A DNA stretch of 61,970 bases, filler included, from Dugesia japonica (lineage: Eukaryota): assembly GCA_001938525.1 (NCBI GenBank). It is 4 parts of 4 records of this genome, joined end to end, with 100 filler letters (N's around TTAATTAATTAA, not from the genome) between each part and the next. Parts side by side here need not be neighbours in the genome. Positions count along the whole stretch, not along the records: positions 52,887 to 61,970 come from MQRL01582287.1; 3 more parts are not named here. One strand, 5' to 3'. This document shows positions 15,998 to 59,400 of this stretch, one piece after another. A program made the position numbers and the translations under genes. Every line of letters starts with the position of its first letter. Within the stretch, counting starts at the first letter, position 1. Below the pieces are notes generated by a model. It was not told where the DNA came from, did not search any database, and was given only the letters and a program-made list of their open reading frames with translations.

Positions 15998-17616
15998 TTA
16001 GCTGGGAATTTGTCTTTACAAAATGATAAAAAAAACAGAATTTTTCAATATATATAACTAATAAGTCTATATAAAAAAGACTTATAAGTAAATATTTTGA
16101 TATCTATAAGGTTAATGAGTATATTATTTGCATAGCTACCTTGTATTATTTAAATAGCAACCATGTATTATAAAGATTATGAGTGTATTATTACAAAGTA
16201 ACACTATAAAATAGGGTTTATGAGTGTATTATTTACATAGCAACCATAAATATAAGGTTTATGAGTAAATTATTTCCATAGTTACCTTGGATTATTTACA
16301 TAGCAACCGTGTAATATAAGACTTATAAGGGTATTATTTGCATCGGTACCTTGTATTATAGGGTTTTTGAGTCTACTATTTGCATAGTTACCTTGTATTA
16401 TTTACATAACAACCATAAAATATAAGGTTTATGAGTACATTATTTGTATAGCTACCTTGTAATTTTTACATAGCAACCATGCATTATAAGGATTATGAGT
16501 ATATTATTTCAAAGTAAGCCTGAATAATATGAATTATGAGTACATTATTTGCATAGTTAACTTGCTGTATTTACATAACCACCATGTATTATAAGGATTA
16601 TGAAGTTTTAATACATAGTAACCCTGTAATATAATGTTTACGAGTAAATTATTTGCTTAGATGCCATGTAATATTTTCATAACAACCGTTTAATATATGA
16701 TTTTTGTGTGTATTATTTACATAGTAACTGTGTATTGTAAGTTTTATGAGTCTATTATTTACTTAGTAACTCTGTATAAGGTGTATATTATTTACATTTT
16801 TACAGTGTAATATAAGGCTTATGGGAGTAATATTTACATAGAAAACTGTATAATATAAGACTTATGGGGGAATTATTTACATAGCAATCTTTTATAATAA
16901 GGATTATAAGATTTACGTGTGTATGAGTCTATTTATTACATATTTACCTTGTATTATTTGCATAGCAACCATGTATTATAAGGTTTATGAGTGTTTTTAT
17001 ACATAGTAACCCTGTAATATAATGTTTACGAGTATGTTACTTGCTTAGGTGCCATGTAATATTTACATAACAACCGTTTAATATATGACTTTTGTGTGTA
17101 TTATTTACATAGTAACTGTGTATTATAGGGTTTATGAGTATATTATTTACAAAGTTTTTGTGTATTAGGTGTATATTATTTACATATTTACCTTGTAATA
17201 TAAGGCTTATTGGGAGTAATATTTACATATAATCTGTATAATATAAGACTTATGATTAAATTATTTACATAACAACCGTGTAATATAAGACTTATAAAGG
17301 TATTTGTATATAGTAAAAATATAATATAGAGTTTATGAGTAAACTATTTATATATTAGCCGTGTAATATAAGGTTTACAAGTGTATCATTTGCTTAGTTA
17401 CCATGTAATAGAGTGTTACTTTGTAATAATACACTCATAATCTTTATAATACATGGTTGCTATTTAAATAATACAAGGTAGCTATGCAAATAATATACTC
17501 ATTAACCTTATAGATATCAAAATATTTACTTATAAGTCTTTTTTATATAGACTTATTAGTTATATATATTGGACAATTCTGTTTTTATCAATTTGCATAG
17601 ACAAATTCCCAGCTAA
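15998..17616. repeat. Foldback-like structure: ~205-bp inverted arms around a ~1.2-kb 39/22-bp minisatellite
   Basis: 15998-16205 is the reverse complement of 17412-17616. Internal units resemble TATAAGGTTTATGAGTATATTATTTACATAGCAACCATG. Confidence 0.85.
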
Positions 17617-18021: not shown

Positions 18022-20977
18022 ATGGTAGTAGAAACTTTCACTTGTCGGTATTGTGGAAAAATCATTAAAAAATTGGGAGCTCTTAAAACTCATATAAAAA
18101 TAAGCATGAGTTAAGAATTCCAACACCATGTCCAGAGTAGCATATTTACAATGGAGATTATAAAATAGAATATTTTAAAAATAGCAAAATCGAATTTACA
18201 AAAGACATTTCTCAAGATGCTGTAATAGAAATGACTTTTTACGCAAATGAGTTAAAAGAAATGACAACTAGATTTTTTAATTTAAGAGGGCAAATACTTA
18301 TTCGACTTTCAGCATTATCACTATATGCTAAAATTGTAGAGGGTTTAAATGTAAAAAGAGAGTTTAGATCTTATGCGAAAAATAAAAAAATAATAATGGC
18401 ATCAGAAATTGAAACCGCTGTAGGAGGTTTAATTACTGAAATAGATAAATATATAAGTGATACAGATAGAAGTGAAAGCGGGTGGACTATTGAATTTATA
18501 ATAAATTTTACATATACTCTTGAACGTTATCAATCACTAGTGACCGCTTGGACATATGTCAAGTTGCCATTTATTAAAATGGGAGTAGTAAATATAGAAA
18601 ATAATGATAATAAATGTTTGCTTTATTCAGTTTTGGCACACAAACATATTTATGCAGATCCAACAAGACAAAGTCATTATTTACGACACATCGATGAATT
18701 TAATTTAAAAGGTGCTAATTTTCCAACAAGACTTCATCATGTGCAAATATTTGAAAGATTAAATAATTGGAAAATTAATATTATAGAAATTAAAATTATA
18801 AATGGAATAAAAATATTACAACCACTTCAGATTTCCCATCATGATACACAACCAAAACCAGAGTCTTGCAACAAGAAATATAAAAATATTAGGAAAAAAT
18901 TCTTTGTCCCATTATACTTTCATAATGCGGGTGGTTATGACAATCATCTTTTATTTAGAGAATTATTAGAAAAACACCCAACACAAATTAGTGATATAAT
19001 TCCACACGATGATGAAGTGTATATATCTTTTAGATTTAAGAAAATTAAGTTTTTAGATTCATGCAGATTATGCCAATTGATGACAATTGAAAAAATGGGG
19101 GCTAATTTAAAAGATGGAGGGGTATATCCACATTTAAAATCTTTCAATCTTAAACCGAAAAAAGTTATATTTCCTTACGACTATGTAAGGGGGAAAAGAA
19201 TACAAGAAGTAATGGAATTGTTAAAATTAAATAGAATTCACACAAGGAAAGAATGTTTCAACACAAACAGAAAGAAATAACAGAGGATGAGTATAAGGAA
19301 TTTCTTGAAGATCTTAGCAAATTTCCAAATCTCTGGGAATACATGCTTCACTATATGAAACGTGATGTAATAACTCTTGCAGATTTTTTCGAAAATTTTC
19401 GTAAGACTTCTATAGAAAATATTGGAATCAACCCATGCTACTGTTACTCTTTACCAGGACTTACATGGGCAGCAGGAATGAAATTTACAGGAGATCAGTT
19501 ATTATATGCAAAACCAGAAACTTATGATTACTTTCTAAAAAATGAAGCAGGAATTCGTGGTGGAGTATCTGCTGAAACCGGTGAAAGACAAGTATTCAGT
19601 TATACTAAAGACATGCCTTTTAAGAGGGTAACTAAAGTGGATTGTGAGTATCTAAAGAAATTAAGAGAAAGTGGTAGGTTAAATATTCCAGAATAATTTT
19701 TCGATGAAACATTTTTAAAATATATTGATCAAAACTCCTTGTATGCATCTTGCATGACAAGACCTCTTCCAACCGGTCAGCACATAGAATGTAAAGAACT
19801 AACATATGAAAAAGCAACTAAAGAGTATAATTTCCTCTATGAGGTGGATTAAGATTATCCTCCAGAGATTCATGAGAAAACGAGGTATTTTCCATTAGCT
19901 CCAGAGAGAATAAATATTCAAGAAAAAATGTTGGCTCCTTATCAAAGAAGATTTAATAAAAAAAATCCAAAAGATAATTATAAATTAGCACTTACTCAAT
20001 TCAATAAAAAAAATTACATAGTACAGGGAAGCACTTTAGACTTATATCTTAAACTTGGAATGAAATTGAGAAAAATTCATTGTAAATATAAATTACCAAT
20101 GAAACCGTGGTCAAGAGAATATATTCTTTTTAACGTTGAGAAAAGAAATGTGGCGAAATAAAATAATGATAAAAATAAGGACTACATGTTTAAAATGTGT
20201 AATAATTGATTTTATAACAAAACCCTAGAAAATCCCAGGAAATATACTAGGTTAGAAATGGTTGGATGTGATGAAGATTTTCAAAAGTTTGCTTCTAAAC
20301 CAACTTATGTTTATTCAAAAACGTTTTTCCCAAACACAGCCGCAATGAACTTGTTGCAAACCTATGTAAAATATAATAAATTTCCATACATTGGTTTTAC
20401 GGTTTTAGAATATGCCAAAGAGGAAATGTATGAATTTGTTTATATAGAGATGGCACTAATGATTGGAATGAAAAATTATAAAATTCACTATACCGACACA
20501 GATTCACTCTTTGTTGAAATCAAGGGGCAAGAAAATTTGGACAAGTTGAAAACACTTTTAGGAAATGAACTCTTTCAAATGAAAGGCGAAATGTCAGATA
20601 GTGTAATTTTACAATGTGATCTTTTAAGAGCAAAATGTTATGGTGTATTATTTAAGAAAAAAGATGGAACTACAGAATTTAAACAAGTGCGTAAAGTCAT
20701 CGCAATATATAACAATTTAAAAATGTTTCAGTTTGATAAAATTTTAAATAATCCAAATGAAATAGTTTATGGAAGAAATTATAGATTAAAATCAGAGTGT
20801 CATGAAGTTGAATTAGTTCATCAAGATAAAATTGCATTAACTGCTTATGATGATAAAGTGTTGATAGAAATTAATGAAATTATAATATGGCTAAACGGTA
20901 ATCAATTTTATTGTTATAGAGTTGAAACATGTCATTATAGGTTAGAACTTTTATGGGATGTTTTAGATTGTCTTTAA
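18022..20977 (+). pseudogene. Protein-primed family B DNA polymerase with N-terminal C2H2 zinc finger; stops, frameshifts and a probable internal deletion
   Basis: CRYC..HIKNKH; FHNAGGYD, FLDS, FPYDY and YMKRDV (exonuclease); GIRGG; YIDQNSLY (motif A); K..NN*FYNK (motif B); YTDTDS (motif C). Confidence 0.95.
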
Positions 20978-21486
20978 TTTGTTTAAGTCAAAATTATAAT
21001 TTGGATTTTCATTCTTAGATTTTAAAATTATTTCTTGAACTTCTCGAATCATGGTTTTACTTGTAGAAATTTCTTCATCACTTAAAATATTATCATTTAA
21101 GGCTTTTTGTTGAAATAGGAAAAGTTTATTTTTAACAGCCTCTAATTTTACAATAAGATTGGCATACTTCTTTTTTTGTTTTGAATTAAAGATGAATTCA
21201 ATGCACCAGTAATTGGAATTGAAGATCCTATTCCAGTTATTATAGGAAGACCAATTGTAGTAATTCCTAAACCAAGTGGAGTTGCAATTTTTATTCCATC
21301 ATCAGCTGCAGACCATTTTCTTTAAAATTTTCGATAGTGTTTTATTTTATGATTTATAAAATATAAATCATTTTCGAAATATTTAATTCTTAGGGATGAC
21401 AATTTTGTCTTCAAGTCTTCAAGTGTATAATTACTAATTTCCTGTTGATAATTTTTTAAATCTGGATACAAGGATTCTTCTGCCAT
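20963..21486 (-). pseudogene. Putative membrane protein of Polinton-like elements, disrupted
   Basis: MAEESLYPDL start, Gly-rich hydrophobic stretch (PLGLGITTIGLPIITGIGSSIP), C-terminal KALNDNILSDEE. Confidence 0.5.
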
Positions 21487-21500
21487 TTTATTAAAGGTTT

Positions 21501-21812
21501 TTATAATTCTTCATAAAATTTTTTTCTTTGATCTTTAGGAGGATTACCAGCAAAAATAATAAGTCTATGAATATAAATATTTTCCGGTAAAAATAAATGA
21601 AAAATACTTTTTTCTCTATTATGATAATCATAACCACTTATAGATTGTTTAAGAGTTTTTCTATCTATTTCTATTTTAAATTTTCCAAGTTTTTCTAATT
21701 TAAAATCTAAAACATGATAAGTATTACTAAAAACAAAAATAATATTAATAATTTTATTCACCTTCGTATATCCAGAAATAAAAAGCATATACTGAACCAA
21801 TGTCTTTGTCAT
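21501..21812 (-). CDS. Hypothetical Polinton protein (103 aa)
   Basis: Open ORF tightly packed in the minus-strand gene block; no motif recognised. Confidence 0.5.
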   Translation of the reverse strand: MTKTLVQYMLFISGYTKVNKIINIIFVFSNTYHVLDFKLEKLGKFKIEIDRKTLKQSISGYDYHNREKSIFHLFLPENIYIHRLIIFAGNPPKDQRKKFYEEL

Positions 21813-21814
21813 AT

Positions 21815-22171
21815 TTAAAATAAAGTTTTCAAGGAATCCAAAGAAAAAAATATTTTTTCATTAAGATATTCCCAAAAACCCTTTATTATTATTTTTTCTA
21901 AATTTATATATTCTGAGACGTAGGAATAATATGGAAATCTATTTTCATTTTTACGAAAAAAATGCAATTTAAAAATCGCAAAAAAGCTTAAACTATTTTC
22001 AAGAAAATCTGTTCTTTTAATATCCACCCATGTTAAATAATTATCAATTAATTCTTTTATTTTTTCAAATAACTTTGGAGATTTAGTTTTTTTATATGTT
22101 TCTAAATTTTCATTAATTTCTTTTACATATTCTGGGTGAAGAAGGTTTTTTATATTTTCAAATTCCACCAC
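21815..22171 (-). CDS. Hypothetical Polinton protein (at least 118 aa; 5' end may be disrupted)
   Basis: Open ORF ending 2 nt before the next ATG; no motif recognised. Confidence 0.45.
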   Translation of the reverse strand: MVEFENIKNLLHPEYVKEINENLETYKKTKSPKLFEKIKELIDNYLTWVDIKRTDFLENSLSFFAIFKLHFFRKNENRFPYYSYVSEYINLEKIIIKGFWEYLNEKIFFSLDSLKTLF

Positions 22172-22199
22172 TAAAAGAGAGAAAGGATCATTTTGTTTT

Positions 22200-22475
22200 T
22201 TTTAACTTTTCAACATCATCTTTTATTTGGTAAAAAAACTTTAAAACAAACTGTTTGAGAAATTTATAATTTACTGGATCATCTTCATCTTTAGGGTTAT
22301 TAGTAATTTTAAAGGTTTTAAAATTAATTTTCGAGAAATTTTAAATTTACTGCATCAAGTTCGTGTTTAGGTGGATCAAGAATTTTTAAAGTTTTAATAG
22401 TGCCACCAGACTCATTTACAAATCTTTTTTCATTGCTTGCATTTTGTATTCTTAATTTACCAGAAATATGATTTC
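22200..22475 (-). pseudogene. Short fibre-like protein remnant
   Basis: Two related repeats (ILDPPKHELDAVN and ITNNPKDEDDPVNYKF) of the P..D..DAVN type seen in viral fibre proteins. Confidence 0.35.
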
Positions 22476-22479
22476 CTTA

Positions 22480-22911
22480 TCATTCATCGTTTGTAAGCTT
22501 TCTCCAAATATGTTCCTTTATTTCAGAAATAATATCAAAAGATTTTTTTGGAAAGCTGTACAAAAAATAAATAGAAAGCACTCCACAAATTCTTGTTTCA
22601 AAAGGTTGAACTTGAATTTCATTAAATTTTTCAACATGCTTCTCAAGATTTTCATGAAAAGGTTTTAAACCAAAAGAGTCAAAATAATGTTTATTCTTCA
22701 TTGCAACCCAATGACTTCCATTTTGATTTGAATTTTGATAATTAAAAATATAATTCATATCATTTTCAAATTTATCTGGCAACTCATTTTTCATGTAAAT
22801 TTCCTATGGTATTTTTAAAAATTTTGCAAATGAATAAAGATCAAAATTTGTAGTTGTTGTAATTCCAAATGTTTTTAGAAAATCTAAAATTCCTATTTCA
22901 ATATTGGACAT
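22480..22911 (-). pseudogene. Adenain-like (C5/Ulp1 clan) cysteine protease, one frameshift near the 5' end
   Basis: GSHWVAM (His), YFDSFG (Asp), Q.FETRICG (Gln/Cys). ATG at 22911 overlaps the end of the penton gene. Confidence 0.9.
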
Positions 22912-23567
22912 TTTCTTAAATGAATTAATAATGACATTGTTTCGTTAATAAAATCTACAGGATTAAAATTTTCATCAACAACGTTAAATCTTAACTCATC
23001 AATATAACCACTAGATATTTTTGAGTAAATACGTTGTGGGTGTCTTTCTATTATTTTAAATCCAAACCTTACACTATTTACTGGAAATGAATATAAAAAA
23101 TTAGTTGGTTTATTATTTATATAATTTCCCTTGATTAAATTAGAAGTAATATTGATCATGTTTATATTTTTACTAATGTTTATTTTCTCTTCAGAAAAAT
23201 ATTTTTTTCCAGGAATATATTCTTTTACTGAAAAACCGAAAAGTTTAAAAAAGAAAGATTTATCATCAAATTTTAAATTGGATTTTATTTCAAGCGAACA
23301 TCTAGCTGTTGAGAGATCAGCAATTATAACTATTCCTAGGTCTTTTAATTTCTCTGCAATTTCTTTAACCTTATAGGCTCCAGGTTGAATTTTATTATTT
23401 ACTACATTATAATTAAAATAACAATTTTCTTTTTGTATATTAAAAATAATATTATAACAAGAAAAATAAATTAATCCAAGTTCGTGTTCTCCTATTAATT
23501 CTAACGGATGTTTTAAATTAATTTCTAAATTAGGACCTTTACCAGTAACTAAAAATTGATGAGACAT
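22893..23567 (-). CDS. Minor capsid protein (penton), intact 224 aa
   Basis: PLEL..EHELGL.YF..YN..FNI, IQPGAY, ITSNLIKGNYIN..LYSF, GFKIIE..P..IY and VVDEN..PVDF motifs. Confidence 0.88.
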   Translation of the reverse strand: MSHQFLVTGKGPNLEINLKHPLELIGEHELGLIYFSCYNIIFNIQKENCYFNYNVVNNKIQPGAYKVKEIAEKLKDLGIVIIADLSTARCSLEIKSNLKFDDKSFFFKLFGFSVKEYIPGKKYFSEEKINISKNINMINITSNLIKGNYINNKPTNFLYSFPVNSVRFGFKIIERHPQRIYSKISSGYIDELRFNVVDENFNPVDFINETMSLLIHLRKCPILK

Positions 23568-24399
23568 TTATTTAAAATATTTTTTGAGATAGTCATTATA
23601 TTTTTTATTTGAAATTAATTTCTTTGCTATTAATTTTCCATAGACCGTTTTTATCTCATCGCTAGTATTTTCATGACCCGATATTTTAGCTAAAATTAAA
23701 ACCATTAATTTTTCAAATAAATCTATTCCATCTCCAAAGAATGTTATTTTTTTAATTGTTTTTTAGGTATAGATTCTAGTGATTTAGGTTTTACTTTGGT
23801 TTTCAACATTTTATAATAATTTCCTTTCTTTGGATGTTTAATATTTAATTTGTATAAATATATATTTACATCTTCTGATTTATAAATATCAGTTTCTTAT
23901 CCTTTTCCTAAAATTAAATGCAATATTTCATCTTTGTATGGAATAAGTTCATTTCCTGTATAAAAATATGGCTTTGTATCCTTTTCAACTAAATATATTT
24001 TTTATTATTAGTTTTTATGGTTGGATACATTTTTTCATTAATATTTAATTCTGGTGTTGTTGTTGGTGTTAAATCTTTTTTATTAAGTGTAATTTTTTCA
24101 TCATTTATCAAGTGTGGTTCTAATATTGGATCTAATTTTGGTTCTAATATCGGTTGAACCATAGGCTGCGATGTTTGTACTGCAGGGGATTTTATTTCTT
24201 GTCCTGATTGTGATAGGGTTAACGGTTGTAATTGTTGTTGTACTGTTTATTGTAATGCTGAAATTAATAGTTGTTGTTGAAAAGCAAGTGATGATTGTAA
24301 ATTTTTAGATTGAAGAACTTAACTCGTGAAATATTCATTATATTTTTCTTCAGCTGCAATTATTTCTTTTAATTCTTTAATTCTCGCTACGCTGTCCAT
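23568..24399 (-). pseudogene. Conserved Polinton protein with Pro/Gln-rich middle, disrupted
   Basis: C-terminal DLFEKLMVLILAKISGHENTSDEI resembles the L..RL.LL.A...AGN....EI motif; its TAA abuts the penton ATG. Confidence 0.55.
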
Positions 24400-24441
24400 T
24401 TTATTAAGGATTTAAATATATTCCTGTTCCATCATAGGGTC

Positions 24442-24923
24442 TTAAAAATATTTCCCTCCCTTTTTTAATTCTTTCGATGGTTTTAAATTTTGATTTCTTA
24501 AATATTTATAAATTGCTTCACCCTGTTTTTCACTTTTCTTTTTTACTTCAAATTCTTTTTCTTTTTGATTTAATTGATCAATTTCAAGTTGATGTTTAAC
24601 TGCCTCTCGGGAACTTGAAACGGTGGATGCGATTCCACTGGCTACGCCGGCAAGGCTCGCTGCAGCAGCAAGAATTCCCGGCATGGCGGACAAGAAAAAA
24701 AGACCGCATTGTTCTTTTTGATGTTTTTCATTTCTTCTTTTGCTTTTTTACCTATCCAATAATTTTTACCATTAACTTTAATCGATCTACTAAGATTTGA
24801 ATTTATTAATTTTTTTAATTCTTCTTCTGTTATATTTGTATTATTTGGTTCTGGTCGTGCTTCGCTTCGCTCGCTAGTACTTCCTTTTAGTTGTGCCACT
24901 TTGCTCGCCATTTTAGTTAGCAA
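24442..24923 (-). pseudogene. Small amphipathic/basic virion core or membrane-active protein (frameshifted into two ORFs)
   Basis: MPGILAAAASLAGVASGIASTV amphipathic helix followed by a coiled, basic tail. Confidence 0.5.
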
Positions 24924-25659
24924 AAAGATCAGTTGTCATTTCATTTGTTAATTGATTTAAATAAAAATATGTATAGGGTTCTTTCCAATGAAAATTTACT
25001 TCATAATCATATTCATCTTTATCAGTAAATACATTAGAAAATAAATCACTATAAACACTGTCACTATCTTTTTTATTTAATCGAAAAAATATAAAACAAT
25101 TTGCATTATTTCTTATTGAATTTTTATCAAGGTGAAAATATGTTTGTGAAATGTAAATTACATTACAATTTGAATGTCTACCTCGAGTGAAATAACTTTT
25201 TCGAGTTTCTTGTTTTTTATTTACAACATCATCAAAAATTACAAGATTCTTTTTTAATTTTTCACAGCGGATAATCTCTAATGGATCACTACTTAGGGTT
25301 ATTCCAATTACCTGCGGTCTTTTTGTTACAAATTTCTTTTGAATGAAAAAATCTATAACTTCTATTGGGGTCGCACAGGAATCTGGAACAATCGCTTGCT
25401 TCTCAAATATAAATATTATTTCTTGTTTTGTTAATCCATTTAAAAATCCATGATTTAATAACTGTACTTCAAATTGATTAATTGTAGTTGAATAAATTAT
25501 GAGAATATCATAATCAAGAAAACCGAGCGTAAGTAACATTTGAGTCAAGAGAACATTTTTTCAACAACCAGAAGATCCAATTATTAATAATCTAAAGTTG
25601 CTGGGGAAAAGTTTAATTTTAAAAGTTACCTTGTCTCTTTTCCAAACTAAATTACTCAT
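24913..25659 (-). pseudogene. A32-like genome packaging ATPase with a nonsense codon in Walker A
   Basis: RLLIIGSSGC*K (GGA>TGA), LVIFDD, and RGRHSNCNVIYISQ..IRNN. Confidence 0.92.
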
Positions 25660-25665
25660 CCTTTT

Positions 25666-26469
25666 TCATAAAGAAGTTTTTTGTAACTCCTTCTCATAAA
25701 ATCTTACAAGAATTTTTCTCCGTTTGAATCACTAATTTCATAAGTTGGTGGAATTGTTAAATAAATTTTTCTAATAAAATAAGTTTCTACAGACCATTTA
25801 AATCTATATTTTTTTTCAAATGTATTTTTTTTAATTATAAATACTCTAACTTTATCTCCTATTTTAAATTTATGTTTAAAATTTTTAGATCACTTTTCTT
25901 TGGGTTCCTCATTGAAAACTTTACCACTAATGTATGCTTCTGTCGGAGTTGTCTTTATTGAAGAATGAATTGTATTATTATAGTTGTCTACTATTTCTTG
26001 TGTGAGCTCTTGTGTGATTTCTTGATTCCCTTCATCAGTAAAAGGTTTAAATAGTTTGTTTTTAAATGTTTGGTTAAATCTTTCAATGACAACTGGCTTT
26101 CTATGATTATAAGTAGAGTACATGTTGATACTATTTTTTCTACACAAATCAGAAAATGTTTTGTTGTAAAATTCCTTTACTTGATCAATCCAAAGATTAT
26201 TTGGAACTTGACCACTATTTTCTAGAATACTTTGAAATGCTTCGGTAATCACTGGACCGGTTTTATTATCACTTGTATATAGATCTTGTATAAAGATCGA
26301 TCACAGTTAACATTACTTGTTTATTATGAAATGTTAAATCTGCAGACCAAGTTTCATCTTTTTCACTTACAGTTACTTTTAATAATTGTTTTGGTTTTCT
26401 ATAATTACGATGAAGCTCGTCTGCTAGTCCTCCTCCTATAGATTGACCAATTAAGAATTTTTCCTTCAT
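25666..26469 (-). pseudogene. Retroviral-like DDE integrase (C-terminal part of a probable PLA2-integrase fusion)
   Basis: LADELHR, WSADL, LTVID, LWIDQ.KEFYN, IERFNQT, YNNTIHSSIK.TP, FKIGDKVR and FYEKELQK motifs. Confidence 0.92.
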
Positions 26470-26888
26470 TGCAATTTTTACAAGACTTCCTTAAAATTTT
26501 TCTTCTGGTGTTGGATCTTCAATATTATTAATATCTTCTATTAAATGTACATCAGCTACGTGTTGATCTCTCATGTCTTCTGAATTATAAGCAATGTCAT
26601 GTTTCAACGCAGCTGCATCAATTCTATTAATTGGTTCTTCTCCTGGTAATGGATTATTATTTTCATCAAGTCTTAAATCTAATCTAGTTCCGGGACCAGT
26701 GTAATTGTGATGAAATAAATGTCTTTCATCGGGGTATTTGTCCCAATTAAATGGTTTTAAAATATTACTAACAAAACTTGATGATTGAAGATCGCCGCCA
26801 CCTTTACAAAGTTTCATATGCCTAGCTTTATTTTTTTTAACATGGTTCTATGACATTTTTCATATGTAAATTTAAACGATTTAGTCAT
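26470..26888 (-). pseudogene. Parvovirus-type phospholipase A2 domain (PLA2X) preceded by a C2HC-like zinc finger
   Basis: HNYTGPGT (Ca2+ loop), PINRIDAAALKHDIAY (His-Asp) and AD. Upstream (Y)EKC-x9-H-x3-C is read across one frameshift. Confidence 0.88.
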
Positions 26889-26892
26889 TTTT

Positions 26893-28143
26893 TTAACGAC
26901 TAAATTCAACACCTTTAACATTTTCAATCATTGCAATTTTATTATTAGCTAATTTCATTTCAATGTGTTTTTCTTCAAGAATACACCAGTAAAGACTTCA
27001 TGTAAAATCTGGATCCTTTGATCAACATTTATTTATATTTAATCTAACATCTTGAGCTGAAAGATCAAAACAGAAAATTGGATATTCGTCACCAAATTCT
27101 TGAAGAGATAATTGAGGTTCTATGAAAAAGTCTTGACAACATTTTAAATAATTTAAATAGAGAGAAATCATTTCATTATTTTCCACATTAAATTTACATT
27201 CATTAATTGGATAGTAATTATTGTTTAATGGAATTTGCATGCTTTTTAAATAATAATTTTCAATTTTATCTCCGACTGCTGGCGCTACTGCTTTTGTGGT
27301 TTTTGTTTTCTTTTTAATAAATAAATTATTATTATTTGCAAAAGAAATAGTTTCATTTTTCATAGCAATAAAAATATATCTTGGTTTGTATGCTAGCATA
27401 CTTAATTTTATAAAAGTATAATTTCCAGTATTTAATATTGCCTTTCCTGTAATTCCATTTAAAAATGCAACTTTAATTGGTTTATCAGTTGAGATTCTTT
27501 CTAAAAGCATTAATTCCATTTTAGGTGCTAATATAAATTCTGGAATGTGTCATTCAAGAGTCATTAATTTTAAATTTAGAGAGCCTTCTCCTTTAAATAA
27601 AAGTTTATTATTAATTTGTCTATAACAATTAAATTCAATCATTGTATTGTAAAATACGCGGGTAAAATTTTGAATGAATCCAAATAAATTTTTCAATGGA
27701 AAATAACCTTCAAATTTTTAAGAAGCATAAAATTTCTTTCTTCTATCTTCTTCAAGAATACATCCTGATAATTCTCCATATATTTCTCTATGTATATAAT
27801 TTGTTGTAACAAAATTTAACATTGTTGATATAGTGCCAGGGTCGCTAATAGTTTCTTCATCTGATGCTCCAAGTTTTAATCTCATAAATTTAAATAATGA
27901 TGGGAAAAAATTATTTTCTAGTATTGCAGTTTTTCCTTCGGTATATTCTAATTCTATTCTAAAGTATAACATTGCATTACAAATATCTAACGAATTTGTT
28001 GATTGTAAAGATTGAAAAGTTATCTCCCCATATTTTATTAAATTTGAAATTGTACTAGATGATGGTGAAATTTTTAAAATGTCATTTTTTAACATTTCAT
28101 GAGTAAAAATAATATTATTATCGAGATTTATTTTTCCTTCCAT
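26893..28143 (-). pseudogene. Major capsid protein (hexon-like double jelly roll), disrupted
   Basis: ORFs 27718-28143 and 27022-27519 with LENNFFPSLF, KPRYIFIAM, YYP and YPIFCFDLS; about 415 codons in total. Confidence 0.82.
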
Positions 28144-28180
28144 TTTCTATAGTAATTTTTTTAACTGTTATAAAAATTCA

Positions 28181-28705
28181 TTATATCACTCGGTCTTTTT
28201 CTTTTATATTTTCCATTACCGTTGCCCTTACTATTACATTTACCATCACTTTTACAGTTGGCCCTACGATTATCATTACTTTTGTCCCTATCGTTACCAT
28301 TACTTTTTCCACGGAATTTTTTTCAAGTTTATCTTCTAAAGAAATAAATCTTCCATTTAAATCTCTTTCCATTAATGTTTTTGTTGTTCTTTTATTAAAT
28401 GGAATGTTAAATTTAATTATATATGTTTTTATTGTTTCTTCATTAAATGGATGAAGCTTACAAAAATATTTTATTGAATTTTTTTTAAAATTAAAATTTT
28501 TCATCATTTTGTGTAAAACAGTCTCCTTTTTTATAAATATTTTTTTAGCTGTTGCTCTAATTTTTCCTGAGCATGTTGTTGGGACTTTCACACGTTAAAA
28601 TTTATCAATAATCTTTTCTTTACCTTCTAAATTATTATAAAAATTTATAATCTCTTTTTGTGAAAGTCGCTTTCTACCTTCTTTTAATTTAAATGCAAAA
28701 CTCAT
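28181..28705 (-). pseudogene. Hypothetical basic Polinton protein, one internal stop
   Basis: ATG at 28705 is in frame with ORF 28181-28591 across one TAA; the 3' part has a degenerate 24-bp repeat. Confidence 0.45.
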
Positions 28706-29254: not shown

Positions 29255-29354
29255 NNNNNNNNNNNNNNNNNNNNNNNNNNNNNNNNNNNNNNNNNNNNTT
29301 AATTAATTAANNNNNNNNNNNNNNNNNNNNNNNNNNNNNNNNNNNNNNNNNNNN
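29255..29354. other. Artificial contig linker
   Basis: 44 N + TTAATTAATTAA (stops in six frames) + 44 N. Confidence 0.97.
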
Positions 29355-42709: not shown

Positions 42710-42809
42710 NNNNNNNNNNNNNNNNNNNNNNNNNNNNNNNNNNNNNNNNNNNNTTAATTAATTAANNNNNNNNNNNNNNNNNNNNNNNNNNNNNNNNNNN
42801 NNNNNNNNN
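42710..42809. other. Artificial contig linker
   Basis: 44 N + TTAATTAATTAA + 44 N. Confidence 0.97.
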
Positions 42810-44170: not shown

Positions 44171-44282
44171 GAATATGTACAAACTGAAATATAAAGTCTA
44201 ATATAAATTTTACAATTGCAATTATTGCGAGAATAATTGTTGGACGTAACCATTGATCGTTTCTTTTTTGGTTTTTGATAAC

Positions 44283-44318
44283 ATTTCTATATTTCGACTT
44301 TGTCTTCGTCAGGAGTTG
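44283..44318 (-). ncRNA. Minimal type I hammerhead ribozyme motif (Penelope-type)
   Basis: Reverse complement reads CAACTC-CTGACGA-AGAC-AAA-GTC-GAAA-TATA-GAAATG; core intact, stem I weakened. Confidence 0.65.
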
Positions 44319-44345
44319 ACTTTAGAAAGAATTGACTTGAAAAGT

Positions 44346-44382
44346 AGATTTCTGACGAAGACCAAGTCGAAATATAGAATTG
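44346..44382 (+). ncRNA. Minimal type I hammerhead ribozyme motif (Penelope-type)
   Basis: AGATTT-CTGACGA-AGAC-CAA-GTC-GAAA-TATA-GAATTG; intact core, stem II GAC/GTC, palindromic ATAT stem III. Confidence 0.75.
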
Positions 44383-45091
44383 TTATCAAAAACCAAAAAA
44401 ACAAATTTTGATCGAAGCTTTTGTTTAAAGGCTTCATAAAATTAAAGATATAGTTTAAAATTTTAAAACAAAATAATTTTTAGACATTTGTTTACTAGAA
44501 ATAGATTATCACTCATTTTTCATTCATGTTTTTAATATGAATATAATTATGACGATATTTAATTTCACTTCTTTTAACAGTAGAAAAACTAATGGAAAAA
44601 TCAATAAAAAAAGTCATTTTAATTTATTAACCCTTTTTTTACTTTTTAACATTGAGTCTTAAAACGACTTTGAAATGAGAAATTGTCGGATTTTAGTACA
44701 ATGTTTTCAAGTTTTTTTTTAAAATTTTACGTATCTCACCAATTTAAATCAACCAGTAACTGTACTCTTTACAATAATTATTTATAATTTCATTCATCAT
44801 ATTACTACTTACTAAATAATAATAATAAAATTTGCTACTAATTATTAATAATAAATATTTGTTTGAAAGCACTTAATTTCCTGAAATATTTCACTCGAAT
44901 CATTTGTTGTAAAAGTATTTCAATTTTCATTTGACATTTATTAATTATGATAAAATAACAAGTGGTAACATGTTTTGTAAAAATAAAATTTTTGTTGGTA
45001 TCTTCACGATTTTATTAAATTATGTTGTTTCTTGTCATTAATGATTATTATTCACAACCCAATCCATATAAACATAATAATAATAATAAAC

Positions 45092-51327: not shown

Positions 51328-51565
51328 TTTTACAATTGCAATTATTGCGAGAATAAATGCTGGACATAACAATCGATCGTTTTTCAGAATTCATTTTATA
51401 TAAAAGCTTAGATTAAAATGTTGTTTTTTTTGGTAATTGATCACAATTCGATATTTTGACTTGGTTTTCTTACGGAAAAATGTCAATTCCTGGAGAAGAC
51501 AAAATCGAAATATCGAATTGTTATCAAATACCAAAAAAACAGAATTTTGATCGAAAATTTTATTT
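51328..51565. mobile_element. Inverted pair of Penelope-type ends with two degenerate hammerhead motifs
   Basis: Tail on minus (51328-51380), degenerate motif on minus (51444-51480), and CAATTC-CTGGAGA-AGAC-AAA-ATC-GAAA-TATC-GAATTG on plus (51484-51520). Confidence 0.7.
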
Positions 51566-52217
51566 TAAATAACTGATATTATTGGAATTTTAATTTCTAT
51601 CAATATTGATTATTTTTATTATTTGTAAATAATTTTATCCCATAACCCTTAAAAATAGGAAAATATTTTATTCAAATACTTCAAGAGTTAATATTATTTT
51701 ATGATAAATTTAATTACTAAAATATCCTAGCGTAAAAATAAGGTTAACAATTTACCAAAAATAATCAAATTATATATGCGCGCACACACACACACACACA
51801 TATATATATACAAATAAATAAAGTAAATAATTCATGACCGAAATTATCATGATAAATTGATAACTCCAACCCAGTAAGCACATCCGGCCACAAATATTAA
51901 TTTTATTTAGTTAAAAATTTAAAAAAATTGCGATGAATTATTTGTCATTTATTCAAAAATAAAAAATAAAAATTGAAAAATAAATTTAAAGTCAAAATTT
52001 ATTTAATAAACTACTTTAAAATAATTGTATTGTAATGGATAAAATGTGACGAAATTTTCCCTAAAATTAGTCAGTAAACAAAAATTGTAAAATAGACGTC
52101 TGCAGTGGCAGAATTTGGGAAATAATTCCGCAGTTGTTAAGGCTATCATAGCTCTGTTAATTTGCACTTTGAAATGATTAATACCGTAAAGAGGAGCTGC
52201 TGACATTTGCTACACAT

Positions 52218-52786: not shown

Positions 52787-52886
52787 NNNNNNNNNNNNNN
52801 NNNNNNNNNNNNNNNNNNNNNNNNNNNNNNTTAATTAATTAANNNNNNNNNNNNNNNNNNNNNNNNNNNNNNNNNNNNNNNNNNNN
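52787..52886. other. Artificial contig linker
   Basis: 44 N + TTAATTAATTAA + 44 N. Confidence 0.97.
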
Positions 52887-53093
52887 GCCATTATTTAAAA
52901 ATTTATTTTTTATCAACTTGAGAGAGATCAATTTCATTTCTTCATTTCAAGATAGTCTCTTAGCTCGAATTCTTTCACTTTTAATTATACAAATTTTTTG
53001 GCTGATGGTAGTATAAGGTAATATATGTCCACTGTGAAATGGTTTCATATATAATTGGGTAATTAATATAACTCTTGAATAAATTAAAACAGT

Positions 53094-53130
53094 CAATTCC
53101 GGAAGAAGACAAGGCCGAAATATCGAATTG
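53094..53130 (+). ncRNA. Degenerate minimal hammerhead motif
   Basis: CAATTC-CGGAAGA-AGAC-AAG-GCC-GAAA-TATC-GAATTG; perfect stem I with a core U>G change. Confidence 0.6.
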
Positions 53131-53204
53131 TTATCCAATATAAATAAATTAAACCTAAATTTTGATCAAAGCTTTTATATTAAATGAATTCTTATTCTTA
53201 TTAA

Positions 53205-53238
<34 letters not shown>

Positions 53239-53789
53239 ATTATTATTATTAATATTATTATTGTTGGGGCGAAACACCTGAAAAACAAGATGAAAGTTGG
53301 AAAATAAATCAACAAACAAGAATGACGAAACCATTATGGAAAATGAGGCAATGAAAGCGATTATAGAAGGAAACGAAATAAAGCCAAAGATGAATATAAG
53401 AAACCGAGTAAAATAAAGCAACTTAGTTTGGGAAATTAAGAACAATTATTAATTTAATAATAAACAACAAGGAAAAGTAATAAGGAAAATAATTAATTAA
53501 ACAAAGAAAATTAATTTATTTTAAAAAAAAATGAAACGAAATTAGCAGAAAACCTATTTTATCCGGATAACTTTGTTCCAGGAAGTTGGGAAAAACCCGG
53601 ACAAGAAAAACTGAAGAAAGAACATCGAGGTGCAACTGAAATGACAAAAAAGAAAAACATACCACCTTCCAGAAGGGTACGGCAAAGTTTCCAAGATCCA
53701 GCCAATGAGAATCCTAAAATTAAAAATAGAACAAAATTTTTGTTTATTTTTGGATAAACGTAGTAGTTATGATAAAAATGACTAGTGTT

Positions 53790-54300
53790 ATATTAATAAA
53801 ACTTAGTTGATACAGTAAAAATAATTCTTCATTCTAATTAAAATTCCTTCATGTCAATAATGTACATAACCATTACTTTATGAGTAAACTTAGTATTTAT
53901 AATAACCATAATTAATGTTGAATTAATCAAATTTAGTTTAGGAAGTATAAAATAACTCCTTATTCTAATTAAAATTATTTAATGTCAATAATGTAAATAA
54001 CCAACACTTTATGAGTAAGCTTAATAATTATAATAACTATAATTAATGTTGAATTAATCAGATTTAGTTTATAAAGTATAAAATAATTCGTTATTCCAAT
54101 TAAAATGACTTAATGTCAATAATTCAAATAACCATCATTATGAGTACATTTAAGATTTCTGATAATCAAAATTTATGTGGATTCAATCAAATTTATTCTA
54201 TAAGGTATAAAATAATTCCTGGTTATAGTTAAAATCACCTAATGTTCATAATGAAACCATCCTTCAAGTTAGGAATAAACATAACAATTTTGATGATCAT
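53790..54300. repeat. ~131-bp tandem repeat, about 4 diverged copies
   Basis: AAATAA(T/C)TC...ATGTCAATAAT...TATGAGTA recurs at about 53819, 53950, 54081 and 54210. Confidence 0.85.
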
Positions 54301-55722
54301 GAATAATAAATTTTAGTTCCCAACAAGTAAAGTGCGCTAGTGAAATTCTCTACAATTAATAATTAGACTGTGTATCCTTTTGTAATGGATTGAATTGCTG
54401 GAAATCATTAACTATCAAGTGTGTTGTTATTACAATATAACAGAATATTTATCATTACAGTAAATTCATGATCTCGCATTTAGCAAATACACCACATCTG
54501 AGCTATAGGATTCGATTTAGCTGATTTTAAAACAACCAATATTTTTTTTATCACATAACAAAATAATAAAAAATTAGGAAAGCAAGACAATCATTTATTA
54601 GAATTTTAATATAAATCTATCCACTAACAAGGATTTGTCATGTAAATATCCACAAGAATTTGATCATCTGATAATTTCCAAAAACAAAAAGTATTGACAT
54701 ACACTGGCTTTTATTGATAGGAAACTTTCGTAGATGCATCATCGCCAATACTGAAAACCAAACGGATGTTTTGTCATAAAACTAGTTTTGCTGTTCAATG
54801 ATTGAAGCACCATATTGTTTGCCAGTAATCCTACAATAAATGAGGTGACTCATAGTCGACACATGGTTGGTACAGTTTTCTAAGCCTGCACACGAACACA
54901 AGTGGGTATACATGCTAACACCTTTAAAACCAATGCGAGTAAGCCCTATCACTAGGCAACCACAGACGCGACAATTTAAACATAAAAATAGAGCTGAAAT
55001 ATTGTTAAATTTTAATTTTTGACATTACGATTATTTTAACAGTTTCAAAATATTACTAGATTTAGAGTAATTACTCTCATCACTAATATTAACAATTTTC
55101 TAGAAGATGAACACCAACTCATTGGAACCCCTTTTTCTAGTATTATTATCATATGATCGATATTATCATCTGTAGAATGATTACTATGACTTTTATTAGT
55201 TATAATATTACTAACACAAATATGATTGTCAGTATTGATATAGAGATAATTCTTTCATTATTATTAATATTACCATTATTATCATTAAGTGTTCTCTCAA
55301 ATCAAGATTATCATTATTAATCCGGATAACATCGTTATTAGATACTATCAAAGAACTATTCTTGGGGAAAGATAACCAACCCCTAGTTAGTATGGCTATT
55401 GATTTTTAGCATTTCATACGACATGACTATCGTTCCGGTACTATTAACTATCCTTCAAATCGATGAAGCCTGATACTGTTGCGGTCATAAGGGTTATCAT
55501 CATTACTAGTAACCAAGAAGGATGTAGTTGACATTATAACCTTTAAAGTGAATAGGACTAATCCACAGGATCATATCAGATGAATTTCAACTAAAATCAT
55601 TTCAATAGATTAATATCATGAGACGAGTCGTCCACGTAATACCACCAGAATAGTAGCCAATATTTGTTGAAGAAAGATTCTAGGATATGAATTAAACTAT
55701 ATCTTTCCGTTATTTTTTTTAG

Positions 55723-55907
55723 TGATGGCAATCGTGTTGCGGGACGCTCTCCGCCAGATAAGAAAGCAACGACGCTCTACTCGCCTAAAACAATTAATTG
55801 CCCACTATTTGGCGAGAGGCCAGGGGGAACACCCCGACGAAACAGATCTTCAGTGTTTTGTTGAGATGTTTCCCCTTGAACATAGAGTGGATATCGACGA
55901 GGAGTAA
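55723..55907 (+). CDS. Cassette 1: terminal exon ORF (~60 aa)
   Basis: TATTTTTTTTAG|TG ATG; GC-richer than the flanks. Confidence 0.55.
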
Positions 55908-56119
55908 CCGCGCTGGCTAAACCCATAGTGGATTCACTCATCTAAAGTGTATTTAATCTAATTGTCGTATCATACATCGTCTATGAATTAAATCCTGTGT
56001 TTTATTTTACTTACAATTTATTTCTCTTAAATATAATCCATTGATTTACCCAAATGTATTTCACTCTGTTTAAATAAAAAAATTCATTAGCTGTTTATTA
56101 TAGAAAAAACGAAACACTT

Positions 56120-56548
56120 ATGGAATATAAATGGGAAGTATGCCTAGATGTCTATTCAGGCCGGACGACATTTAAGAGGTATAAGAACCCATACAATCGA
56201 GATACCGGTGATTTGGTTGATCACACCAATTTACCTCCCAAGCAAGTAGATTACGAAAGGCAGTGGGACACGACCGAACGAGCTGCTTACTATAGTTGGT
56301 GAGGCCCACGTAGAGACCGGTTCGCCACCCCACCAGCAACCCTGTCCTTCGAACGTTCGGCAGAAATTCCGCAAATAGAACGTGTCTGTCACGATGGCCC
56401 TTCGTCAGTCGGGCTTACTACGAATTTCTTGCCTCCCACGGCACAACTCACGTCGTTCATACAAAATAACCTGTGGGGAGTCCAAAATGCGCTAATTAAC
56501 ATCAACGATGAAAATGTGGGAGAAGAGCACCTCGATGTGCTAGCATAA
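56120..56548 (+). pseudogene. Cassette 2: 142-codon ORF with one internal TGA
   Basis: Acceptor TTTATTATAG at 56103; the frame stays open 81 codons past TGA 56300 to TAA 56548; AATAAA at 56564. Confidence 0.55.
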
Positions 56549-56697
56549 ACCTAATACTATTAAAATAAAATTTAAATTGATATTTATTTTCCTTAGTTAT
56601 TTGGACTTAAATTGTTATTGTCTCATTAATTGATCCTATTTTCGACTAAATTCAGTCATCGTTAAAAATCTTAAATTTTACGCTAACTTTGTTTTAG

Positions 56698-57065
56698 TGC
56701 ATTCTTCTTTGAACCGATCACAGGCCCCAACCAAGAAATTACGCGAGGATAGCGAGGATAAGGAGATTACCTGGGACCTATATAAATTAGCTAAGAGGCG
56801 ATGGGAAGCAGAGATCGCAACAGCTAACGCTAAAGTAAAGCGGTATAAAACGAAATGTACGAATGTTCGCGAAGAAATGAAGGTGGTGCAGGACCAAGAG
56901 AGGGTCTGGAAGGCTCAGGTAGAATCCTTCGCTGAAATTATCTGGTCCAGCCATGACCGTGAGAATAAACTGGTCAAGGACATTCTCCTACTGAAAACGA
57001 AATCTTATCTGGAGCCACTTATGATTGATAAGGGCACCCAGACGAAACTTAATTCCCACGTTTAA
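56698..57065 (+). CDS. Cassette 3: terminal exon ORF, coiled-coil-like (~122 aa)
   Basis: Branch-like GCTAAC and TTTGTTTTAG|TG; AATAAA at 57082. Confidence 0.6.
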
Positions 57066-57189
57066 CCTTTATCTCTTAAAAAATAAAATTTTGTACATCT
57101 TACTTTTGATCTCTGTTGTTGACAGCTTTGATAATAAATTCGATAATAATAACATACATTGTTATCTGTTAATGCTTATTTTATTTTAG

Positions 57190-57572
57190 TGCCACGAATT
57201 AGTTTCCCCAACAACCTTAGGAGATGTCACCACATTCTGCGTCGCCTCCTTCTTGAAAGACATCTGAAACGCAAAGCCGACAAAGCCTTATTAAAGCACC
57301 TTGCTCAACGAGACCAGCTTATTAAAAAACTGGATCTAATCATAAAGAAGCAAAATGACCTTGCCATTCAGACAAAGGCATTAGAAACAGAAAATAAACA
57401 ATTATTGCAGCGGAAGATTGAATTTTTAAAGCAATACATTGCTGATTTATCCCGACAAATAGGTAATCCAAATATATTGCAATGAGATGATTATGAGGAC
57501 ATTGGAGCTTTTAATTTTGCGTTAACCGACCCAAGCCAATGGCTAGATCCAGGGGCGCTGGACTTAATTTAA
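57190..57572 (+). pseudogene. Cassette 4: terminal exon ORF, coiled-coil-like, internal TGA at 57483
   Basis: TTTTATTTTAG|TG; no in-frame ATG; the frame continues 28 codons past the TGA; AATAAA at 57585. Confidence 0.55.
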
Positions 57573-58639
57573 TTATTTTTATAAAATAAACTGTCAGTAT
57601 TCAAAATTTTATTTTCATTCTTTCAATAGTAACAATAATGGAAAAATCCTTGAACCCGAATATAAAGGTTTATCGGTGCGTACCTTCCATTAAGAGCAAG
57701 GCCAACCGCCATAAACTGAAAACCTACCACAGGAATGGTAGGGTAAATTCTTGAAAGGGTTCCCCTGAGGGCTGTTTTTCCCCAGCCCCCTTTTTGTGTC
57801 ACTCAACTCAGGTGGGACCCCAACATTATTATTATTATTAATGTTATTTAAAATATTTTTTGTAGGTGTCAATTTTTACATCTTTAGCATCAATTTCCCC
57901 ACCTAATTGTAAAAAATGATTTTTTTTATCGGCGTGTAAATTTTCACACATTATTATTATTAAAATGTTATTTTATGGGTGTGAATTTTCACACTTTTGG
58001 CATAAACTTTCACACCTCAATCCTGTGTATTGATGCTGGAATATTAAAAGAAATATATCATTGTTGTTATTTAAGATGTACTTTGTAAGGTGTGAACTTT
58101 CATACATTATTATAAACTTTGAATTTTCACACTTTTGGCATCAACTTTTACCCCTAACGGTAATTTTTTCCATTAAAAATAATTAGCCTCAAATATTTTT
58201 TTAACGAAATGAAATTATTATTATTTTTAATTCTATCATTAATTACTAATAGCAACGAAAAAAATTTATTTACATGATGACAGGTAATGTACACAAGGTT
58301 TTAAACATTTTTTGTAAGCACAATAATCTCCATGACTATAATATGGACAGGGAATATTATCTGGTATACATAATTGTAATTTTTCATTTAAGTTATAATT
58401 GAAAATTTGAAGACTTGGGAAAAATTTCTTTGTGGAAAATCTCAAATTTTTATTTTTGGTGCTTGATTTTCTCTGCGTAAACAACATGTATGGTTTCGAT
58501 TTTAGTATTATTTTACTCAGGAGGAAAAAGTGACTATGTAAAGGTAAAATATCGTCTCGCAAAAATGCTTCATTTAGAAGATATTCAGCTGCTTTCTCGG
58601 ATTTGGTAAATTTTTTCAAAAATTGAAAAAGTATCTCAG

Positions 58640-59400
58640 AATTTGCCAAAAAGGTATCTATTTGATAGAGAATCTTTCATTAATTCCAAATATGTAAACC
58701 TAAAATTATTAAACCTTTACATAAAAAGTTATATAGAGAAAATATGTACTTCATTTTAGGAGTCCGGGAGGAAATTATGAATTTTAAATAGGGTAACTAA
58801 AATCTAATTTTTACATAGTCTATTCAATAGAGAATTTTACGTTGATTAGGATTGGTCTAGTTAGAAATCACCAAATCTTGTCTGAAACTAAAGAAAATGG
58901 GATAAACCCGAGATTTTTTGACAATTTTTGAATTATTTTCTTCTCAAATTGTAACCAAACATACATTATTCTATAGAGAATTATTTACTTATACAGAAAA
59001 ACATCACTTAAAACCATCAAACTCAATTTTTTACAAAGAAAATTCGAAAAACCATAGTCAAAAATTTTGATTACGCTTAATCGACACAAATAAAAAGTTA
59101 TTTTTTTATAATTTTCGTCCAAATTTAATGATCCAAGTACTATTAGATAGAGAATGTTTTAATGATCAAGAAGAAATTTGTCAAATTAAATTACTTTGAA
59201 AAAAGTTAAAACTTTTTATATCTCAATAATTAATTAAAATTAAAAAGTATCTCAATTTAATTAAAAAACAATCTATTTAATATAAACGTTTACCCTAATT
59301 ACAAATATATTAACCTAAAATCACGTAACCATATAAATAAAAAGTTATATTGAAAAAACAAGTACTTAATTTGAGAGTCTCCGAGGAAAATAAAATATGA
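58640..59400. repeat. Non-coding repeat with a recurring ATAGAGAAT motif, probable non-autonomous DNA transposon remnant
   Basis: The motif recurs about every 150-170 bp (58661, 58827, 58973, 59147); 58680-58780 resembles 59297-59395. Confidence 0.4.

Follow-up and report, generated by a model that had tools for sequence, protein, structure and literature searches.

The stretch of DNA analysed here (the window; 61,970 nucleotides, filler included) comes from the planarian Dugesia japonica (assembly GCA_001938525.1) and consists of four parts joined end to end. In the last part (MQRL01582287.1) an element of 4564 bp lies within an (ATT)n microsatellite. The element has TG...CA ends, belongs to a dispersed family, carries coding-like blocks and is probably a solo long terminal repeat (LTR). 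Its extent and borders are as follows:

53262–57825, + strand: complete element of 4564 bp with TG...CA ends, probably a solo LTR
53188–53261, no strand: (ATT)n microsatellite to the left of the insertion; the final TTAT (or TTATTAT, the last 7) is the putative target site duplication (TSD)
53262–53281, + strand: left terminal inverted repeat (TIR), 8-bp perfect match plus CACCTGA
57808–57825, + strand: right TIR, 8-bp perfect match plus CACCTGA
57826–57839, no strand: right part of the (ATT)n run, beginning with TTAT

The left end is TGTTGGGG at 53262, which has a single + strand occurrence within the window, and the right end is CCCCAACA, finishing at 57825. The match of the terminal 8-mers has a probability of 1.5e-6 per given position. 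The inverted ends continue past the 8-mer: TGTTGGGG is followed, after 5 nt on the left or 3 nt on the right, by CACCTGA. The (ATT)n repeat was found on both sides, at 53188–53262 (Tandem Repeats Finder) and at 57825–57839. Both the TG...CA ends and the (ATT)n flanks had been claimed in a preliminary description of this DNA, and both were confirmed. The 4-bp TTAT duplication claimed there fits the repeat register. Comparison of flank lengths from 1 to 15 gave matches at 1, 4 (TTAT) and 7 (TTATTAT) only, excluding 3, 5 and 6; because the insertion site is a microsatellite, the 4-bp TSD fits without being unique, and lengths of 1 and 7 fit equally. A Ty3/Gypsy solo LTR is expected to have TG...CA ends with a short inverted repeat, which were found, and a 4–6 bp TSD, with which the 4-bp reading, one of the three lengths that fit, would agree. 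Runs of (ATT/AAT)4 or more make up 1.0% of the window, and the AAT insertion context is known from one site. Neither a direct repeat of the element ends nor a second copy of the element was found in the window.

An alternative internal boundary at 54325, proposed earlier on account of a CCCAACA at 54319–54325, was rejected. The window holds 10 occurrences of this 7-mer, for an expectation of 3.0, the copy in question has no ATT flank, and none of the joints or loose ends listed in the read-contig mapping falls at 54325. The complete CCCCAACA, overlooked in that proposal, is also present at 57206, within ORF D (see below). Family depth reaches its minimum near 54325. As to the surroundings, the left flank of the element is one copy of a small palindromic repeat family (51386–51623, 53086–53235, 44199–44429), and the right flank (57946–58640) is a very high-copy, transcribed repeat.

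Two DNA runs from different studies (X1 and X3) and two RNA runs (X17 and X20) were mapped on positions 53240–58640 at 85% likeness. X1 is possibly the window's own sample. Positions 57816–57852 were excluded from the mapping as repeat, and the sequence after the right end in other copies lay outside its view. A run search located part of the stretch in 15 of the 24 runs listed (best share 0.40); the absence of RNA runs from those listed as containing it speaks neither for nor against expression. From X1 14,336 contigs and from X3 10,920 contigs were mapped, counts that take in 815 bp of the repetitive right flank. Likeness was mostly 90–95%, and contigs identical to the present copy had a depth of 2–8. 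Summed depth, which is not the same as copy number, was about 1e4 over the left arm, 3–290 over 53783–55773, 6e2–1.4e5 over the bins containing open reading frames (ORFs), and 7e4–2.4e5 over the last two bins at the right end. In most middle bins other copies exceeded the present copy, for example with 112 of 120 at 54656. The element is thus plainly a member of a dispersed high-copy family about 90% alike, seen in two DNA studies and as expected of a Ty3/Gypsy solo LTR. Its interior is therefore not single-copy host DNA, which the preliminary description had named as one of the cases that would refute its reading.

A joint from 54043 to 57566, bridged by 20 other letters, appeared in both X1 and X3 (depth 34 and 51). 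It is no more than suggestive of a 1.06-kb form uniting both arms of the element. A separate observation is an X1 contig that equals the window over 54478–54924 and is preceded by 138 unmapped letters (54340–54477); these may stem from an allele or a close copy, or reflect an indel.

The interior contains four + strand blocks (A–D) at 38–49% GC, spaced by stretches of 21–28% GC. The coding-like features are (a slash marks the presumed exon border):

54939–54944, + strand: candidate splice donor GA/GTAAGC, which with an acceptor exon starting with TG would spell ATG; no spliced read seen
55723–55907, + strand: ORF A; acceptor TTTTAG/TG (AG to 55722), ATG at 55725, 60 amino acids, Arg-rich start
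55821–55878, + strand: stem-loop within ORF A; z –4.7 on the + strand and –2.5 on the – strand, in a region picked after a scan
56120–56548, + strand: ORF B; 142 codons, own ATG, in-frame TGA at 56300–56302, AATAAA at 56564
56698–57065, + strand: ORF C; 121 codons with helical periodicity, acceptor AG to 56697 closely preceded by CTAAC, AATAAA at 57082
57027–57044, + strand: DKGTQT in ORF C, matching the LC8/DYNLL-binding motif
57190–57572, + strand: ORF D; acceptor AG to 57189, no Met, in-frame TGA at 57483–57485, AATAAA at 57585

ORFs A, C and D each start directly after TTTTAG/TG, all in phase 1. Three of the five TTTTAG sites on the + strand open 60, 121 and 97 codons in one phase, and three such sites were reached in none of 2000 local shuffles. 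In B, C and D the TAA stop is followed by AATAAA at 15, 16 and 12 nt, respectively (joint chance about 1e-4 in shuffles, a post hoc figure with D measured from 2 nt before the stop end); the nearest AATAAA following ORF A is at 165 nt. B and D each have one in-frame TGA followed by open GC-rich sequence; the present copy is therefore broken in two places. Recoding of TGA was considered and rejected, the two internal stops being compatible with decay in a copy about 10% different from its relatives. Since D has no Met at all and the first Met of C is residue 61, C and D need an upstream exon. Upstream there are several candidate donors with a final A, of which the one at 54939 is best, and joining such a donor to a TG acceptor would make an ATG across the junction. 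The start codon of Drosophila gypsy env is described as made by splicing (PMC2585583). The four ORFs, compared with each other, showed no paralogy.

Family depth was unevenly distributed between the blocks and the sequences separating them. The spacer bins at 55955 and 56498 had a depth of only 110–179, and that of the ORF bins was 4- to over 800-fold higher. This excess is not due to GC content alone, because middle bins at 0.36 GC had a depth of 13–128, whereas ORF D bins at 0.35–0.39 GC had 3,500–7,800. The excess, a ratio of depths rather than a dN/dS estimate, suggests that the ORFs are under selection. B and C are linked by contigs from other copies (56437–56718, 284 nt, both DNA runs). 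Other copies' contigs also skip the spacers, and their alignment restarts at 4–13 nt from the C and D acceptors, on the upstream side (joints to 56692, 57176, 57181 and 57185).

The searches listed here revealed neither a homologue nor a family for any of the ORFs, and the functions proposed below therefore rest on motifs. The Pfam scan of the element ORFs gave weak sub-cutoff matches only, several of them to coiled-coil families; there was no match to gag, pol or transposase families, in agreement with the preliminary description. The PHROGs scan gave no usable match. ORF A was searched against Pfam and PHROGs only, without a usable match. A word-index protein search with C and B, covering near lengths only, returned nothing usable, nor did a full HMMER scan of 1.84 billion representatives, made with C only. 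In the Atlas the best match of C scored 0.90, with no family and low recognition, and D had no usable match. D and C found nothing usable among PDB sequences; the single low E-value of D belonged to a designed repeat protein in which no stretch passed. Of 237 pattern matches produced by metagenome tblastn with C, none was confirmed, and no match came from scanning metagenome and viral contigs for DNA motifs.

ORF C has helical periodicity and ends, at its C-terminal side, in DKGTQT. The LC8/DYNLL motif is given as [D/S]KX[T/V/I]Q[T/V], often flanked by coiled coils (PMC3078936). The looser pattern [KR]xTQT appeared in 2,466 of 200,000 shuffles; a six-frame translation of the window contains it once. 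On these sequence features, C is probably a coiled coil binding the dynein light chain LC8. In D a basic stretch is followed by leucine heptads and an acidic tail, and a single-sequence fold of the first 97 residues predicted one 84-residue helix (pLDDT 90). D thus looks bZIP-like in layout, with no match to the bZIP family. The single-sequence fold of B was unusable (pLDDT 36). In ORF A the stem-loop on the + strand was equalled in none of 200 shuffles; A is probably an Arg-rich protein overlapping an RNA hairpin, a putative regulator.

Outside the coding blocks the element has these features:

53282–53746, + strand: A-rich left arm (49% A over 53262–53780), family depth about 1e4
53747–54307, + strand: 131-bp tandem array of about 4 copies, possibly enhancer-like
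57661–57691, + strand: candidate LTR promoter, consisting of TATAAA and, about 28 nt further downstream, an initiator-like TCCATT
57723–57820, + strand: subterminal hairpins and a 40-nt block (57744–57783) common to related families; candidate R/U5

The 131-bp array had no BLAST relationship to the satellite at 16–17 kb of the window. We take the TATAAA/TCCATT pair to be promoter-like. A hairpin at 57723–57742 stands directly before the 40-nt block. At 57744, where relatives have loose ends, the letters differ and still read as a hairpin at the same place: its arms are CCTAGC/GCTAGG in relatives from both RNA runs and ATCCAA/TTGGAT in those from X1 (agreement 0.76 and 0.51). Transcription was seen for distant relatives that have the right-end block in common with the element. 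Downstream of the TATA box at 57661 there is no AATAAA, and the mapping listed no transcript ends; Rfam and tRNA searches each gave no match. The TATA/initiator-like site and the hairpins would suit an R/U5 region.

We interpret the element, with a probability of roughly 0.6, as the decayed solo LTR of a large Gypsy-type element that carried an alternatively spliced accessory cassette in U3. The earlier proposal of a gene-bearing solo LTR is upheld in that the element is one inserted unit, belongs to a multi-copy family and contains real coding blocks; its LTR identity, unproven, remains the best reading. The parent would have been a Metaviridae-like retrotransposon, inserted into an ATT run by a retroviral-type integrase that left the TG...CA ends, the short inverted repeat and a 4-bp duplication. 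Its gag-pol may then have been lost through LTR–LTR recombination, and the element is not self-mobile. The accessory cassette in U3 would account for the length of the LTR. Each of its four short genes would serve as an alternative terminal exon and have a 3′ splice site, a poly(A) signal or both to itself; A, C and D would be spliced in phase 1 to a common upstream exon, the start codon possibly being built across the junction as in gypsy env. The products would probably be regulatory proteins, with D acting as a bZIP-like transactivator, C as a coiled coil that binds LC8 and A as an Arg-rich protein whose ORF overlaps an RNA hairpin. The poly(A) sites in U3 would have to be leaky.

Several observations weigh against this interpretation. 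The presence of AATAAA signals in U3 means that the genomic RNA would be shortened unless the signals are leaky. Neither a primer-binding site (PBS), a polypurine tract (PPT) nor a copy flanking gag-pol was seen in the short contigs, from which 57816–57852 had been left out as repeat. RNA was near nil: in samples of 13.6 (X17) and 11.6 (X20) million reads, about a quarter of each run, only 24 of 595 and 1 of 90 mapped reads, respectively, were at least 95% alike, counts that span the whole stretch including the flank. RNA supported none of the 15 joints listed of 66. The present subfamily is near silent in these two RNA libraries. The lack of homologues for the ORFs counts on the same side, as do the bins at 54145–54506, the sole region that is near single-copy (depth 3–17). 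The right-end fold is modestly better than shuffles (z –1.0 to –2.2), and the joint from 54043 to 57566 has AT-rich sequence on both sides, of a length that was not given, and may be spurious.

A different origin can be imagined from the same ends. TG...CA ends and 4-bp TSDs also define Ginger elements, and Ginger1 and Ginger2/Tdd are described with TGTNR-type ends and introns as well (PMC2836005). The element would then be a non-autonomous cut-and-paste DNA element dependent on a Ginger-like, integrase-type transposase, with its own gene cassette and short internally deleted derivatives, and would never have been part of a retrotransposon. The possible 1.06-kb deletion form, the greater abundance of the element ends than of the middle, and genes with their own poly(A) signals would all suit a DNA element. 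However, Ginger TIRs are about 40–270 bp long, compared with 8 + 7 bp here, and the recorded targets are CCGG/CCGT or RTATAY (PMC2836005), whereas the present site is TTAT within (ATT)n. Ginger elements also have an integrase-like transposase, and the Pfam scan of the ORFs found no transposase remnant. Membership in Ginger was rejected on TIR length and target, and we consider such an origin unlikely. Less likely still is a composite, in which an ordinary 1.06-kb solo LTR was joined by an unrelated gene-bearing repeat (about 54044–57565), inserted or captured later. The very uneven family depth, with its near single-copy bins, the joint from 54043 to 57566, and a similar 1.2-kb TGTTGGG...CCCAACA unit elsewhere in the window speak for it. 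The joint, however, lies 6 nt before the end of the ORF D stop codon, and the short form would retain the ORF D poly(A) signal (57585) in its right arm, which weakens the composite and agrees with an origin of the short form by deletion from the long one. At the inner borders neither a TIR nor a TSD was noted.

The least probable of the three alternatives accepts the same element and explains the cassette as an operon resolved by spliced-leader trans-splicing, not by cis-splicing to a shared exon. The distances from AATAAA to the next acceptor, 133 and 107 nt, are near the operon spacing of about 100 bp reported for a flatworm and Caenorhabditis elegans (PMC8629364). A flatworm leader, however, ends in ATG (PMC12582326); it would impose phase 0 and open 0, 4 and 25 codons at the three acceptors. 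The operon fails because an ATG-ending leader gives the wrong frame, and D has no Met of its own. Among other classes, Helitron/Helentron and Polinton elements were rejected, as their ends and TSD do not fit. Troyka LTR retrotransposons have CG...CG ends and a 3-bp TSD (PMC12440569). They were rejected as well, the present ends being TG...CA and a 3-bp TSD being excluded.

Mouse mammary tumour virus (MMTV) sag and human immunodeficiency virus (HIV) nef are accessory ORFs in or overlapping U3 and are expressed from spliced RNA. Each is a single ORF sharing the LTR poly(A) site, whereas the solo LTR proposed here would carry as many as four ORFs, of which three have an AATAAA to themselves. Among large Gypsy elements, tandem repeats and multi-kb LTRs are on record for Burro and for Ogre of the plant Tat lineage (PMC6431247). 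Burro (GYPSM1), the planarian giant Gypsy, shares with the present family thousands of copies, tandem repeats and accessory ORFs; it is over 30 kb in total with up to 25 kb internal, implying multi-kb LTRs (PMC6431247), and the AT-rich genome and the Gypsy and Polinton neighbours are further likenesses. The comparison is by description only. The passages of that paper on Burro place the extra coding sequence in the polyprotein or in accessory ORFs and mention no LTR genes, and none of the named Burro domains (BIR, MATH, BCL2, ankyrin) was matched in the present element. Ogre LTRs, 1.9–6.5 kb, are in the same length range, whereas its 1–2 extra ORFs are described in the internal region (PMC6431247). 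In gypsy env the junction is AT/G and env is outside the LTR (PMC2585583), as opposed to the A/TG junction predicted here. The ORF3s of bdelloid rotifer LTR retrotransposons are likewise small, family-specific extra ORFs, some coiled-coil, from spliced messages, but each such element is described with one ORF3 only, placed after pol and not within the LTR (PMC5408684). By analogy, the element could be likened to the long LTRs of Burro and Ogre with an MMTV sag-like gene added in U3.

Other parts of the window contain further repeats. At 442–1660 there is a second TGTTGGG...CCCAACA unit, 1.2 kb long, with an A-rich left arm like that of the element, TATAAATA near 930 and a 230-N gap; an AAT run lies on its right, but it lacks a matching TSD, and BLAST showed no real similarity between it and the element at 53262–57825. 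A fragmented Gypsy-type pol (RVT_1 and rve matches) lies on the minus strand at about 6150–8850, unlinked to that element. The region from about 18100 to 28600 is Polinton/Maverick-like, with Pfam-supported ORFs for an A32-type ATPase, an integrase and double-jelly-roll proteins; at 18141–20977 long ORFs resemble DNA polymerase B by eye, with no Pfam match. Adjoining it is a foldback unit (15998–17616) whose 210-bp inverted ends, 96% alike and beginning with TGTT, surround a 42-bp tandem array. Identical 100-nt gap markers at 29255–29354, 42710–42809 and 52787–52886 (44 N, TTAATTAATTAA, 44 N) are assembly linkers, not biology.

Among the titles and the opening lines of abstracts that were searched, neither planarian LTRs with genes in them nor AAT-targeted Gypsy elements were described; Grohme et al. 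(2018) with its supplements, and Repbase, lay outside this search and may already contain the family. The present copy is itself decayed and gives almost no RNA. An LTR is normally regulatory DNA, and four small orphan genes arranged as alternative last exons would be unusual for it; solo LTRs are usually treated as non-coding promoters. In its boldest form, which we put forward tentatively and regard as doubtful, the LTR would be a small regulatory genome: a leader exon and alternative terminal exons with their own poly(A) sites and junction-made start codons, encoding an Arg-rich protein, a coiled coil that binds LC8 and a transactivator of bZIP-like layout, which thousands of solo LTRs could express without gag-pol, the parent having had an (AAT)n-preferring integrase. 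If AAT targeting holds, this would be a rare case of a sequence-directed Gypsy integrase. If the family is indeed a high-copy LTR with several selected genes, it would bring regulation in the style of complex retroviruses to an invertebrate Gypsy lineage, form a large unannotated pool of orphan genes outliving the loss of the provirus, and provide a testable tie to the host dynein light chain and to transcription control.

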